64,000 nt of DNA from contig NC_043007.1 of NCBI RefSeq assembly GCF_006345805.1, forward strand, positions 13,516,001-13,580,000. Direction: 5' to 3'. Source of the stretch: Octopus sinensis. Taxonomy: Eukaryota. Position numbers and translations under genes: made by a program. Below, one piece after another: positions 2,961 through 57,932 of the stretch. Position 1 is the stretch's first letter. Each line of letters opens with the position of its first letter. Below the pieces are notes generated by a model that saw only the letters and a list, made by a program, of their open reading frames with translations, did not search any database and was not told where the DNA came from.

Positions 2961-3706
2961 AGGCGGCGAACTGGCAGAACCATGAGCACGCCGGGCGAAA
3001 TGCGTAGCTGTATTTCGTCTGCCGTTACGTTCTGAGTTCAAATTCAGGCGAGGTCGACTTTGCCTTTCATCCTTTCAGGGTCGATAACTTAAGTACCAGT
3101 TACGCACTGGGAGCGATGTAATCGACTTAATCCGTTTGTCTGTCCTTGTTTGTCCTCTCTGTGTTTACCCCTAGTGGGTAGTAAAGAAATAGGTATTTCG
3201 TCTGCTGCTACGTTCTGTGTTCAAATTCTGCCGAGGTCGACTTTCCCTTTCATCATTTCGGGGTCGATTAAATAAGTACAAGTTACGCACTGGGGTCGAT
3301 ATAATCGACTTAATCCGTTTGTCAGTCCATGTTTGTCCTCTCTGTGTTTAGCCCCTTGTGGGTAGTAAAGAAATAAGTATTTCGTCCGTCTTTACGTTCT
3401 GAGTTCAAATTCTGCCGCGTTCGACTTTGCCTTTCATCCTTTTGGGGTCAATAAATTAAGTACCAGTTATGCACTGGGGTCAATGTAATCGAATGGTCCC
3501 CTCCCGCCAAAATGTCAGGCCTTGTGCCTTTTGCAGAAAAGATTTCGTCCGTCTTCACTTTCTGAGTTCAAATTCCGCGAGGTCTACTTTGCCTTTCGTC
3601 CTTTCCGGCTCCATAAAACAAGTACCAGTTGAGTACTGGGGTCGATGTAATCGACTAGCTCCCTCTCCAAAATTTCCGGCCTTGTACCTATAGTAGAAAA
3701 TATTAT
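2961..3706 (+). mobile_element. SINE family B concatemer (one head, four bodies, period about 183 bp)
   Basis: Head aggcggcgaactggcagaa; body gtcgactttgcctttcatcctttcggggtcgat repeated from about 3011, 3194, 3378 and 3543; two Tx1-like tails then two type-1 tails. Confidence 0.9.
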
Positions 3707-6228: not shown

Positions 6229-6744
6229 ACTTAACTCCCTTTGTCAGTCATTAATTTTGGTAATTTTGTGGTTTTTGAATTATTTTAATTCTTACCTTTA
6301 GCAAAAGCGGTGTTAGTCAGTACCTTCTGTCACTTGTGTCGCCTCTATTAATTTCGCTTCAAGGTTCTGATTGCTAATAAGCCACCCTTTCTAATTTGTT
6401 CTTCATCCTTTCTGGTTTTCTCTCCCACCCTTCCTTATTCTTATCCTCTCCCCTTTACCGTTCTCTCTCTCTCTCACTCTTCCTCCTTGACTCTCTCATC
6501 GCTGACACGTGACGAAAGGGAATCTATCTTTCTACCCATTTCCTTCCTAAAGACAACACGTGCATATACCTGTCTCCTCTCATAAGTTCATCCTCCTAGC
6601 GTTCATAATAATTTTTCTATCTTCTTGGCTTAACGGCCCTCACCGTTTGTTTTTACTGTCTTGTTCTTACTGTCCTGTTCTTGTTACCACTTTCACCCTC
6701 TGCAAAAAATCCGAAATTTTATTTTATTTGTTTTGCATGAAGGA

Positions 6745-6820
6745 CTGTTTCAGTGGAGTCGCGTATTGTCCTTGCCTCCGTTTCGGGGAGTAGATGAAAC
6801 AGGGACAACTGATGAAAGGG
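6745..6820 (+). ncRNA. Rearranged hammerhead-like motif, decayed copy
   Basis: cgcgt-A-ttgtcct ... ctcc-gttt(for GAAA)-cggg ... gggacaa-CTGATGA-aaggg; outer helix ctgtttca/tgaaacag. Confidence 0.5.
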
Positions 6821-6964
6821 AATATTCTTTGTGTTGCATGTCTCCTTTCTCTGTTTGTTTTTTTCGTTGCTCGAAAAAAAGTTTCATTTTCTATGTTTTT
6901 GTTTTTATGTTTTCGATTCTCATTGTATTCAACGTTTTTTGATGTCCTGTACCCATATATGCAT

Positions 6965-7194
<230 letters not shown>

Positions 7195-10744: not shown

Positions 10745-11042
10745 GGTATTATCAAAAGCATCTTCGGCAACGAAATTCATGATATTAAAACAACGCCATC
10801 TCTCCTCCCCCAATAATAATAACTATAATAGAAATAATAACGAAAGATGGTAAGAGTAATGGGAAAGAACTCAATTATTAAATAAGTCGAACTTATGGAA
10901 GAGTTGTTTTCGTTTCAACACGCAGTTGGTTATTAATTAAATAATAGTAACAATAACAGCGGTATTTGGAACAGCAACAACAACGACACAACTAACACGC
11001 CTGTGTGCATGAGTTTATACGCCCGTATATCTGTGTAGTGTG

Positions 11043-11707
11043 AGTGTGTATATACGTGTTAATGTTTGTATGAACAATTAGATTCAGATTTGTGTTACTA
11101 AGCGTATCACAGAGTAAAAACAGAATCTGATCGTTCAGATGCTTTAATACTGACTAGTGAGACGGTCAGTGCTTTGATATACGACCAACTATCATGGGTT
11201 TATAAATGAGATTCGGCTGTAATGTCGTTAGACATGAATCACAGTTGGATACGTTGTATATAGAATTTTATGAGTGTTGTGTCAGTGTGTATATACGTGT
11301 TAATGTTTGTATGAACAATTAGATTCAGATTTGTGTTACTAAGCGTATCACAGAGTAAAAACAGAATCTGATCGTTCAGATGCTTTTATACTGAGTATTG
11401 AGACGGTCAGTGCTTTGATATACGACCAACTATCATGGGTTTATAAATGAGATTCGGCTGTAATGTCGTTAGACATGAATCACAGTTGGATACGTTGTAT
11501 ACTCTTTTACTCTTTTACTTGCTTCAGTCATTTGACTGCGGCCATGCTGGAGCACCGCCTTTAGTCGAGCAAATCGACCCCAGGACTTATTCTTTGTAAG
11601 CCCAGTACTTATTCTATCGGTCTCTTTTGCCGAAATGCTAAGTGACGGGGACGTAAACACACCAGCATCGGTTGTCAAGCAATGCTAGGGGAACAAACAC
11701 AGACACA

Positions 11708-22331: not shown

Positions 22332-22910
22332 TTTTCTTTACTACCCACAAGGGTGTTAAACACGGAAGGGACAAACAAGGACAGACAAACGGATTAAGTC
22401 GATTATATCGACCCCAGTGCGTAAATGGTACTTATTTAATCGAAGTAAAGTCGACCTCGGCGGAATTTGAACACAGAACGTAGCGGCAGACGAAATGCCT
22501 ATTTCTTTACTACAAACAAAGGACTAAACACAGAGAGGACAAGCAAGGACAGACAAACGGATTAAGTCGATTATATCGACCCTAGTGCGTAACTGGTACT
22601 TATTTAATCAACCCCGAAAGGATGAAAGGCAAAGTCGACCTCGACGAAATTTGAACTCAGAACGTAGCGGCAGACGAAATACATATTTCTTTACTACCCA
22701 CTAGGGGCTAAACACAGAGAGGACAAACAAGGACAGACAAACGGATTAAGTCGATTATATCGACCCTAGTGCGTAACTGATAATTATTTAATCGACCCCG
22801 AAAGGATGAAAGGCAAAGTCGACCTCGCGGAATTTGAACTCTGAACGTAGCCGCAGACGACATACCGCTACGCATTTCGCCCGGCGTGCTAACGTTTCTG
22901 CCAGCTCGCC
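22332..22910 (-). mobile_element. SINE B trimer, all units with Tx1-like tail
   Basis: Three bodies, one head ending at 22910. Confidence 0.9.
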
Positions 22911-30272: not shown

Positions 30273-30852
30273 TTTCTACTCTAGATAAAAGGTCCGATAT
30301 TTTGGGGGTGGGAACCAGCCAATTAGATCGACCGCAGTACGCTACTGGTACTTAATTTATCGACCCCGAAAGGATGAAAGGCAAAGTCGACCTCGGCGGA
30401 ATTTGAGCTCAGAACGCAACGGCAGACGAAATACCTATTTCTTTACTACCCACAAGGGTCTAAACACAGAGGGGACAAACAAGGACAGACATAGGTATTA
30501 AGTCGATTACATCGACCCCAGTGCGTAACTGGTACTTAGTTTATCGACCTCGAAAGGATGAAAGGCAAAGTCAATCTAGGCGGAATTTGAACTCAGAACA
30601 TAACGGCAGACGAAATACCTATTTCTTTATTACCCACAAGGGGCTAAACACAGAGGGGACAAACAAGGACAGACATAGGTATTAAGTCGATTACATCGAC
30701 CCCAGTGCGTAACTGGTACTTAATTTATCAACCCCGAAAGGATGAAAGGCAAAGTCGACCTCGGCGGAATTTGAACTCACAACGTAACGCAGACGAAATA
30801 CCGCTAAGCATTTCGCCCGGCGTGCTAACGATTCTGCCAGCTCGGCCGCCTT
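30273..30852 (-). mobile_element. SINE B trimer (two Tx1-like tails, one type-1 tail)
   Basis: Repeated bodies; imperfect flanking duplication gctggtactaaatat / gcaggtatgtaaatat. Confidence 0.9.
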
Positions 30853-32748: not shown

Positions 32749-32961
32749 CGCCGGAATAATAAAAAAGAAATAGCAACATAAAAATATAATGCTAAGTTAA
32801 GCTTGGACAAAAACAGAAACTGCATATTTTGCATTTGCATATGTGAATTGCGTTCATTGCAAAACAAAAAAAGAAAAAGCCGTCGCGATTCTGTTGTGCA
32901 TCACGTCAAGATATTGCGTTACTGCAGTTAGATTGCACAACAGCATAATTGTACCAGAACA

Positions 32962-33380
32962 TATTGGTAACTCTGTCGCAGTGTTTCTGACTCATTAAAA
33001 CAATGTAACGTTCTGTTAATAAGGTATATTTAACCGTCGAGGCCGACTCTGCCTCTTATCGTTTCGGGGTCGATAAATTAAGTACCAGTTGCACACAGGG
33101 GTCGATCTTATCGACTGACCTCCTCTCCCAAAATTTCGGGTCTTGTGCCTAGAGCAGAAAAGAATATGTTGGTAACTCAGTCGCAGTGTGTCTGACTTAT
33201 TAAAACAATGTGACATCCACTTAATAAAGTATATTTATCCGTCGAGGTCGACTCTGTCTTTTGTCCTTTTGGGGTCGATAAATTAAGTACCAGTTGCGCA
33301 CAGAGGTCGATCTTATCGACTGGCCCCTCCCGCCAAAATTCGGGCCTTTTGCCTAGAATAGAAAAGAATAAAGTATATTT
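32962..33380 (+). repeat. Tandem duplication of about 204 bp (unique flank plus truncated SINE B)
   Basis: ttggtaactc...gtcgcagtgt...attaaaacaatgt followed by a SINE B body and type-1 tail, twice. Confidence 0.88.
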
Positions 33381-46257: not shown

Positions 46258-46862
46258 AACTAATAAACATTCTACTATGGATGCAAAGCCTGGAATTTTG
46301 GGGTTAGATACATGGCTAATCGATTATTTCTACCTCCCCATCACCGTGCGAGAATAGAACTTTTTTTCGATTCTGAAAGGACTTCAGTGGAATTTGAACT
46401 TACAACGTTAACCCGGAAAAAATGCCGCAAAATAAGAACTAACACATTTTCTACCATGGACATAAAGCCTGGAATTTAGGGTTTGGCACCGTGGCTAATC
46501 GATTACTTCTACCTCCCCACCCCCGTGTTTGAATAGAATTTTTTTTATCCTGAAAGGGCGGGAGATGAAGTCGACTTCGGTGGAATTTGAACTCACAACG
46601 CTAACTCGGAAAGAAGTGCCACTAAATCAAAACTAATAAATTTTCTACTATGGACATAAAGCCTGGAATTTAGGGCTTGGGTACGTGACTAATCCATTAC
46701 TTCTACCCACAACCCCTGCTTGAATAGAAGTTATTTTTTCGATCCTGAAAGGAGGTTAAGTGAAGTCGACCTCGGTTGAATTTGAGCACAGAACGTAAAC
46801 CCGGAAAAAATGCCACTAAACATTTTATCCGGCGTGCTAACGATTCTGCTAGCCCGCCGCCA
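46258..46862 (-). mobile_element. Diverged SINE B variant trimer
   Basis: ttctactatggacataaagcctggaattt-like unit three times (about 46258, 46437, 46632); head at 46830-46862. Confidence 0.8.
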
Positions 46863-50584: not shown

Positions 50585-50804
50585 AATTATGCGATAAGAA
50601 AGAAAAAAGACAAGATCTACGGAAGAAGAGGAAAGGGAGAAAGTCACCCACATGGAGGACATTATGCGTAACACACACACATATGTGTGTATATATATAT
50701 ATATATATATGCATATAATAGTATAAATAGTATATAAGTATATGAATATATACATACATATATGTACATAGCTTTATATATATATATATATGTATATATG
50801 CATG

Positions 50805-50937
50805 CATATATGGGTACAGGACATTAAAAAAATGTTGAACAAAATGAGAAACGAAAACAGAAACAAAAGCATACAACACAAGGAATATTCCTCTTCTTCA
50901 GTTTGTCCCTCTTTCATCTACTCCGCGTTTTCGAAGG

Positions 50938-50938
<1 letters not shown>
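50805..50938 (-). mobile_element. Truncated copy of the 3' end of the 6060-6962 element
   Basis: Minus strand cttcGAAAacgcggagtagatgaaagagggacaaaCTGAAGAagagg...gtcctgtacccatatatgc. Confidence 0.75.
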
Positions 50939-50971
<33 letters not shown>

Positions 50972-51189: not shown

Positions 51190-51385
51190 ACGTATATATG
51201 GACACAGGACATCAAGAAACGTGTACAACAAAAAGATACGAAGAACGAGTACATGGAACGTGAAGTATTCTTTCCTACAACGAAAAGCACAAATGGAAAA
51301 CAAAACAAACAGCATAGAGAATGAACCTTCGTCAGCTGTTGGCTGCTTTTCTAGTCTTGTATTTCGAGCATTTAACAACAACGCT
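51190..51385 (-). mobile_element. Related Penelope-like 3' fragment with GAAA preceding CTGACGA
   Basis: Minus strand ttgttg-ttaaat-gctcGAAAtac...caacagCTGACGAagg; end gatgtcctgtgtccatatatac like 6941-6961. Confidence 0.6.
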
Positions 51386-52435: not shown

Positions 52436-53285
52436 TTCTTTTCTACAATAGGCACAGGGCCTGAAATTCAGTAGAAGAGGACTAGTCGATTACATCGACC
52501 ACAGTGCTTAACTGGTACTAAATAATCGACCTCCAAAGGATGCAAAGCAAAGTCGACCTCAGCGGAATTTGAAAACAGAGCATAAGGACGGACGAAATGC
52601 TGTCGAGGATATTTTGTCCGGCGTGCTAACGTTTCTGCCAGCTCATCACCTTCAACAAATCTTTTGATATTCTTTCCTACTCTAGGCACAAGACCCGAAA
52701 TTTTGAGGGAGGAGTCTCCTCCATTACATCGACCCCAGTACGGAACTGGTAATTAATTTATCGACCTTGAAAGGATGAAAGGCAAAGTCGACCTCGGCAG
52801 AATTTGAACTCAGAACGTAGCAGCAGACGAAATACTTATTTCTTTACTACCCACAAGGGACTAAATACAGAGAGGACAAACAAGGACAGACAAACGGATT
52901 AAGTCGATTATATCGAACCCAGTGCGTAACTGGTACTTAATTTATCGACCCCGAAACGATGAAAGAAAACTCGAGCTCGGCGGAATTTGAACTCAGAACG
53001 TAACGGCAGACGAACTACTGCTAAGCAATTCGCCCGGCGTGCTATCGTTTCTTATTTCTTTACTGCCCACAAAGGGCTAAACACAGAGAGGACAAACCAC
53101 TACAGACAAATGGATTAAGTCGATTTTATCGACCACAGTGCGTAACTGGTACTTATTTAATCGACCCCGAATGGATGAAAGGCAAAGTAGACCACGACGG
53201 AATTTGAACTGAGAACGTAACGGCAGACGAAATACCGCAAAGCATTTCGCCCTATGTGCTAACGTTTCTGCCAGCTCGCCGCCTT
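52436..53285 (-). mobile_element. SINE B monomer plus trimer in tandem at one site
   Basis: Site sequence recurs three times: agatttttaatatt (about 52424), aatcttttgatatt (52658), aatcttttcatatt (53289). Confidence 0.88.
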
Positions 53286-56960: not shown

Positions 56961-57053
56961 ATGGGAATTAAATATAAAATATAAATTGCAAAGTGGGACA
57001 AGAACGCAAAAACACACAAAGAGACGACACAAAAAAACAGACGGGTCACTCGA

Positions 57054-57130
57054 AGCCTCTAATCTTCAGTCGGGAACCGGATCATCTTAGTAATTTCGGC
57101 TGTTTAATCTCGATATTACTCCGACCCGGC
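57054..57130 (-). ncRNA. Rearranged hammerhead-like motif (downstream repeat)
   Basis: Minus strand agtaat-A-tcgaga-ttaaac-agcc-GAAA-ttact-aagatgatccggt-tcccga-CTGAAGA-ttaga-ggct. Confidence 0.55.
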
Positions 57131-57809
57131 CAGCCCCAAAGAAAATCCAAGCCACAGGCATTGGATTTCTTGGAAAGAGGGTCGAATGTATACGGAACAA
57201 GACAGGATGCCACACGAATATAAATACAAGAAACTAAAATAGAAATAAAAACAGAAATAAAAAACACGAATGGTGGACAGTACAAGGACAGGGGCGTCTT
57301 ACGACTTTAGACAATTTTCAACTTATCTTGGCTGGCGTATATGAAAAAAGCCTTTACGGCAAAACGAAAACAACGTTAACGTGGCCGCGGTCAGGCCGAA
57401 AAGACCAGTTTGAACGCGGTCACGTGAGAGCACGGAAGAAAGAGAAAGAAAAAGAAAGGCAGGGAGCAAGGAATTAAAGAGAGAGGGGAAAGAAAGGGAC
57501 GAAGGCACCAGGGGAGAGAGAGGGAGAGAAGGGAGTAATCAGAGAGGGGAGAAGAAATAGGATTGGCACAGCAATAGAAATGAAGGTGCAAATAAGAGTG
57601 GGGGAAGAATCAGAAGCAAGGAAAGAGAAAGAGAGAGTGTGTGTAAAGACGTCGTACAAGGTAAAAATGTGTGTATACATAGGAGATAGGGGAACGTTAC
57701 GCCGCAATAATATATGTATGGGAATTAAATATAAAATATAAATTGCAAAGTCGAACAAGAACGCAAAAACACACAAAGAGATGACACAAAAACCAGACGG
57801 GTCACTCGA

Positions 57810-57886
57810 AGCCTCTAATCTTCAGTCGGGAACCGGATCATTTTAGTAATTTCGGCTGTTTAATCTCGATATTACTCCGAACCGGA
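57810..57886 (-). ncRNA. Rearranged hammerhead-like motif (upstream repeat)
   Basis: Same motif as 57054-57130 with identical core and stems I and III. Confidence 0.55.
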
Positions 57887-57932
57887 CAGCCCCAAGGAAA
57901 AACCAAGCCACAGGCACTGGATTTATATATAT

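Follow-up and report, generated by a model that had tools for sequence, protein, structure and literature searches.

The question raised by positions 6,745 to 6,820 of the window, a 64,000-nt stretch of the Octopus sinensis genome, is whether the hammerhead-like motifs found there in a rearranged order form a ribozyme, how its core would be wired, and whether it cuts. The segment had been read from its letters alone as a rearranged hammerhead (the initial annotation), and on re-reading the sequence all of the quoted motifs were at their positions. Nor did the pattern arise by chance: an S-G-C descriptor found 145 cores in 372 fetched loci, further families in the flanks included, compared to 0 matches in 3.58 Mb of shuffled sequence (three rounds); the 1.20 Mb of fetched loci overlap and were chosen for these repeats. 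Judged from sequence, this is probably a real and active new wiring of a known ribozyme, of which the window holds a dead copy.

The window copy and its families

The motif lies in a non-coding, 5′-truncated copy of a repeat, family A, at 6396–6968 on the plus strand, which matches fetched locus L002 at 88% over 577 nt. The family monomer is ~730 to 740 nt long, and a TA/TATC microsatellite forms the 3′ end of the copy. The whole structure spans 6696–6819, wider than 6745–6820 on the 5′ side. On the plus strand it begins with the P5 5′ strand (6696–6699), which pairs with the strand right after A9, and the P4 hairpin (6700–6738; arms 6700–6706 and 6732–6738), which abuts G10.1 and whose first pair has decayed in this copy. 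Next come the stem II 5′ strand GAAGG (6739–6743, positions 10.1 to 10.5), 5/5 Watson-Crick in the majority rows of families A to E and Naiad, the 5′ strand of the outer helix P0 (6745–6752), and the 5′ side of a kink-turn-like loop, read by eye and decayed here (6753–6759). Block S (6760–6772) consists of the stem III 5′ strand CGCGU (6760–6764), U16.1, H17 (A6765), and the stem I 5′ strand UUGUCC(U) (6766–6772). Block G (6775–6787) holds the stem II 3′ strand CCUCC (6775–6779), G12 to A15.1 as GUUU (6780–6783), and the stem III 3′ strand. The 3′ side of the loop and the P0 3′ strand follow at 6788–6802 (UGAAACAG at 6795–6802), then the stem I 3′ strand GGACAA (6803–6808) joined to an intact CUGAUGA, C3 to A9 (6809–6815), and the P5 3′ strand, which begins right after A9 (6816–6819). 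A6765 remains the supported candidate for the nucleotide preceding the cut, as first predicted. The 7-bp stem I given for this segment does pair, and its seventh pair shares G6802 with the outer helix, so that an outer helix of 8 bp leaves only 6 bp for stem I.

The window copy is, from its letters, decayed and inactive because GAAA reads GUUU (6780–6783); two stem III pairs are also broken, and the motifs are otherwise present. Positions 6782 and 6783 are mostly A in other family A copies, most of which have both GAAA and stem III restored, as the initial annotation had proposed. The copy fails the S-G-C descriptor, which only two 57-kb copies in the window pass, and no hammerhead was found among the Rfam matches listed (150 of 382).

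Five families were obtained from the window and from flanks, namely A (the window copy), B (57 kb), C (51.3 kb), D, and E. The genome is 2.72 Gb and microsatellite rich, and first-look candidates in it numbered 2988, 3484, 1922, 2744, and 3835 for A to E, respectively, in sets that overlap and are not copy numbers. The order of the blocks, site strand, GAAA strand, and CUGAnGA strand, is the same in all five. Stem III reads CGCGU/ACGCG, GUAAU/AUUAC, CGUAU/AUACG, CUCAU/AUGAG, and CAUGU/ACGUG in A to E, respectively, and at least ten sequence versions of it occur; stem I and P0 covary between families in the same manner. One fold with compensatory changes in every helix is common to A to E and the published octopus Naiad retrotransposon. 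The U16.1-A15.1 pair, H17, covarying stems I to III, and G10.1-C11.1 are all present in the families, and C3UGAnGA9 stands beside stem I in all majority rows and in the window copy. GAAA at A13 was found in 52/52 matches of B and 34/62 of A, and GAAA is kept in the majority rows of C, D, E, and Naiad. The cross-family covariation asserted at the outset is supported for stems I and III and the outer helix; stem II as it was then paired is not supported.

Three further loci in the window, all on the minus strand, belong to these families. The sister family A copy (50794–50940) starts ~7 nt past the predicted cut, directly behind (TA)n; read downward from 50940 it retains CUUC-GAAAA-CGCG and CUGAAGA, as had been noted, without the cleavage-site strand, however. 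The family C copy (51194–51381) is the other short one and starts at about the predicted cut site. Family B forms a partial tandem with 756-nt spacing (56975–57925), in which the entire fold is present in the copy whose CUGAAGA lies at 57069, with a predicted cut between 57114 and 57113. The motif CACGTGAC, at 6506–6513 (plus strand) and 57419–57426 (minus strand), is common to A and B, lies ~260 to 310 nt upstream of the cut, and is a possible promoter element. More families with the same core were chance finds in the flanks (L016, L039, L055, L202, L093, L113, L348, and L072); in L016 the P0 region is longer, and neither P4 nor P5 is clear.

Stem II, the extra helices, and the outer helix

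The five bases before G12 pair with a strand 0 to 3 nt 5′ of P0, forming GAAGG/CCUUC in A and E, GAGCA/UGCUC in C and D, GGCUG/CAGCC in B, GACAC/GUGUC in Naiad, and GCUUA/UAAGC in L016. Of the 13 rows examined, 10 have all five pairs of this upstream stem II as Watson-Crick pairs, and three, which are single decayed copies, have four of the five. The stem always contains G10.1-C11.1; it was scored as the best of 24 start positions, for which our own arithmetic gives a 5/5 chance of ~2% per independent sequence. The GAGG/CUUC stem II of the initial annotation is probably in the wrong register: the 5/5 Watson-Crick partner GAAGG (6739–6743) lies upstream, and the downstream strand pairs as P5. 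In the majority rows of A to E, the strand after CUGAnGA pairs perfectly as P5 with a probability of 0.95 to 1.0.

Because the Watson-Crick partner of stem II lies upstream, the chain is likely opened between A9 and G10.1, and it would be closed by two extra helices. The P4 hairpin ends directly before G10.1, and P5 starts directly after A9 (2 nt later in B), its partner being the strand just 5′ of P4. Both helices change on both sides between families. The combined P4 and P5 score was matched by 0/500 shuffles for C, 1/500 for D, 18/500 for A, and 23/500 for B; it was not above shuffles for E (92/500) or for Naiad (367/500), where P5 is short, nor for the single copies L016 and L039. Folding was pseudoknot free and applied only to P4 and P5, since such a model does not allow stems I, II, and III to coexist.

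P0 covaries in every family and is joined to stem III through a tandem G-A loop. This fits a structural brace better than the switch that had been suggested for the outer helix, and the obligatory trans partner proposed as the alternative may exist but is not required by the data. The kink-turn consensus is a 3-nt bulge followed by tandem G-A/A-G. By eye, the loop is a textbook case in B, C, and Naiad, and A, D, and E keep the tandem G-A with an irregular bulge. P0 is likely a kink-turn-like structural brace; the distal ends of stems I and II and P0 would come together as a three-way junction, and the return of P0 to stem III via the G-A loop would let P0 brace a monomer.

Insertion 5′ ends and the carrier

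The 5′ ends of family A insertions were compared with the predicted cut in two samples that were chosen separately and have a few loci in common. A tail motif 124 nt past the cut had 164 exact matches, and the first 90 of these loci made up the tail-selected sample (92 rows minus two duplicates, giving 90 distinct copies). Twenty-six of the 90 begin within +1 to +20 of the cut (the cut class), the observed starts running from +1 to +19 and two being exactly at +1, compared to 0/90 at 0 to −7. The rate of 5′ ends was 0.021 per base in this interval compared to 0.0027 in the flanks, a 7.8-fold difference for an interval that was picked after the data were seen. A second pile at −118 (12 copies) was mostly an alignment artefact of a subfamily insertion and was excluded from the baseline.

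These ends were compared with the state of the core. GAAA was intact in 14/17 cut-class copies compared to 14/43 copies spanning the site (P = 0.0006), and the whole core was present in 9/43 spanning copies. CUGAnGA was intact in 24/26 and 33/43, respectively (P = 0.12), a direction that fits cis action. In the core-motif sample (all 62 matches), 22 of the 34 copies with A13 start past the cut compared to 7 of the 28 without it (P = 0.002). Internal deletions ended within −4 to +6 of the cut in 7/42 cases (P = 0.015). The piles were weak in family B (4/30 copies at −2 to +13) and in Naiad copies (~3/30 past the cut, by eye). Variants of family A with U13, G13, or one A missing from GAAA are common and are enriched in long copies. 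Since 28 of the 62 matches are without A13, core-mutant subfamilies spread too; variation at A13 may also trace back to a small number of source elements. The pile of new insertions just past the predicted cut suggests that the family ribozyme likely cuts in living cells.

The A to E units are non-coding, end at (TA)n, and are sometimes tandem, with spacings of 726 to 850 nt at some loci; one unit has a pair of open frames, both T-rich, with lengths of 121 and 159 codons. No match to a Penelope-like element (PLE) protein was found within the units. Upstream of them, Neptune-like queries found no PLE frame except one unrelated fragment, and thus no Naiad-type frame in which RT is joined to an N-terminal GIY-YIG domain. 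Sequence comparison linked no autonomous element to A to E. The cut-class copies often have PLE-type 5′ junctions: 11/26 lie directly behind a TA run and 4/26 behind an inverted copy. A 26-nt motif of the published octopus Naiad consensus has 178 genome matches at ≤1 mismatch, and blastn of A to E against Naiad loci near the ribozyme gave microsatellite similarity only among the 30 matches listed. The published Naiad_Ovul 3′ end carries the same fold, and the Naiad_Esco end fits by eye only; the ends of three of the 54 published Naiad consensi were inspected. The putative link to Naiad lies in a common fold and common insertion habits, not in sequence.

Two PLE families that touch A copies were rejected as partners and taken as unrelated neighbours. 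The PLE frame beside L020 is part of a Neptune-like element that is nested there and carries a type I hammerhead of its own. The fragment in L009 comes from a PLE family of which 12 long copies were fetched, none of them ending in A or B. Several other elements were observed in the fetched loci. A young Neptune-like PLE family (L061–L073; 7449 candidates, frames up to ~1000 codons) has a minimal type I hammerhead that reads CUGUUGA, so A6 is U. A second PLE family (L074–L085) has long frames and inverted 5′ copies, with no CUGAnGA seen just downstream of the frames; a diverged fragment of it (L009:1028–1333) abuts a family A copy. L002:1750–2900 holds two fragments that resemble the C-terminal endonuclease of a HERO/R2-type element. 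The window also contains an abundant SINE-like repeat in tandem units of 160 to 216 nt on both strands (3010–3704, 22447–22865, 30322–30802, 32956–33370, 46380–46820, and 52835–53269) and a 241-nt direct repeat, 97% matched, at 11033–11501.

Proposed mechanism, rival readings, and known hammerheads

We consider it quite likely that the locus is a decayed non-coding retro-repeat whose family motif is a predicted split-core hammerhead, intact copies of which likely cut in cis after H17. The strand order would be P5-P4-II-P0-III/cut/I-II′/GAAA/III′-P0′-I′/CUGAnGA-P5′. P4 and P5 would create a four-way junction holding A9 against G10.1, and P0 with its kink-turn-like loop would tie stem III to the distal ends of stems I and II, replacing the usual loop-loop contact. 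A Penelope-type enzyme, probably that of Naiad, would reverse-transcribe the cut RNA starting at the 3′ tail and insert the product at (TA)n. Copies made in this way would start just past the cut, whereas those made from uncut or core-mutant RNA would run through it, and the window copy would be of this spanning kind.

The same strands could instead form a plain type-SGC hammerhead, with stem II made by the strand after CUGAnGA and with the upstream strand, P4, and P5 as an alternative, possibly inhibitory fold. This was our first reading and was dropped; the Naiad_Ovul end cannot form the downstream stem II, and the upstream partner is better. The class is proven to cleave according to the accessible text of PMC10085705, and a downstream 4-bp pairing exists in A to E, perfect in B after a 5-nt spacer and in the B relative L348. 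In A, C, D, and E it follows a 1-nt spacer, as is typical of PLE hammerheads. However, two of its four pairs are G-U in A, C, D, and E, it needs a 4- to 5-nt spacer in B and Naiad and fails in L016, and the strand it uses is the one that pairs perfectly as P5. We therefore regard this reading as unlikely.

It is also improbable that the helices proposed here are active only in a domain-swapped dimer, whether between tandem units or between separate molecules, of the kind ascribed to minimal PLE hammerheads (PMC4209133, accessible text). Tandem units at the spacings given above would allow this, and P0 abuts stem I with 0 to 2 nt, straining a monomer, but stem III is a full, non-palindromic 5-bp helix, and a monomer could be accommodated if the kink-turn-like loop folds P0 back. 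The excess of intact CUGAnGA in the cut class also has the cis direction, but at the P value of 0.12 given above. Very unlikely, in our view, is a conserved non-catalytic structure that resembles a hammerhead, such as a signal that binds protein or stops reverse transcriptase. Consistent with it, U13 and G13 subfamilies, and some in which an A is missing, have spread, and the core of B is perfect, yet most sampled B copies run through the site. Against this, the core nucleotides are all kept across very different families, and the 5′ ends have their stop at precisely +1, with a dependence on GAAA, which alters no helix.

Returning to the split-core hammerhead, its closest relatives by strand order are the type-SGC hammerheads (HRIMA-1 and variants; Eckert et al. 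2023, PMC10085705), known in the accessible text only from metatranscriptomes. The two share the order of site, GAAA, and CUGAnGA strands, a pseudoknotted core, and a short stem I-stem II linker (2 to 5 nt in all our rows), whereas the octopus fold has the stem II 5′ strand at its 5′ end, additional helices P4, P5, and P0, and an animal genome as host. An unbroken block C, with the stem II 5′ strand 1 to 2 nt after A9, was not found in our rows, where the best partner is upstream and a weaker downstream pairing is possible. Minimal type I hammerheads of PLEs (Cervera and de la Peña 2014, PMC4209133, accessible text) likewise have their site in the 3′ repeat of PLE-type elements, G10.1-C11.1, and tolerance for an extra nucleotide between 9 and 10.1, but they are of type I, in circular form, and their stem III is nearly absent; one is found in the Neptune-like element of the octopus genome. 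A single extra base at this link also occurs in the viroid CChMVd hammerhead, and the accessible part of Perreault et al. (2011) lists other small core insertions and no helices at the 9/10.1 link. The pseudoknot-containing hammerhead (PMC11300833) also tolerates a very short stem II backed by another helix, but in the accessible text its strand order is circular and A9 is still joined to G10.1.

Among mobile elements, non-LTR retrozymes (bioRxiv 10.64898/2026.07.22.740005; PMC7229834) are likewise non-coding tandem hammerhead units linked to PLEs. In the accessible text they are defined by a type I hammerhead, one per unit, which A to E units were not found to contain, and their descriptors would miss the split-core fold. 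Naiad PLEs (Craig et al. 2021, PMC8557442) resemble A to E in (TA)n targets, inverted 5′ copies, partial tandems, and, in Naiad_Ovul, the fold itself; unlike them, A to E have no RT or GIY-YIG frame and, among the matches listed, no similarity to Naiad loci beyond microsatellites. The accessible text of that paper states that Naiads lack canonical hammerheads and labels Naiad_Ovul and Naiad_Esco "HHR_half_core."

A literature search mostly outside subscription journals found no description of split-core wiring or of SGC-like hammerheads in animal genomes. We think it likely that the octopus fold is a seventh natural hammerhead wiring, a non-circular permutation opened in the catalytic strand, with a four-way junction and a kink-turn brace. 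It would be active in vivo, would occur many thousands of times in the genome of an animal, and would be the ribozyme that Naiads were thought to lack. If so, it would break the rule of three unbreakable blocks by which hammerhead forms are enumerated and, within the literature searched, would provide the first non-circularly permuted hammerheads in the genome of a known animal. It would also explain the half-core labels of Naiad elements and offer a new scaffold for RNA engineering. Finally, the role of hammerheads in Penelope-type elements would become testable, because insertion 5′ ends would record cleavage.
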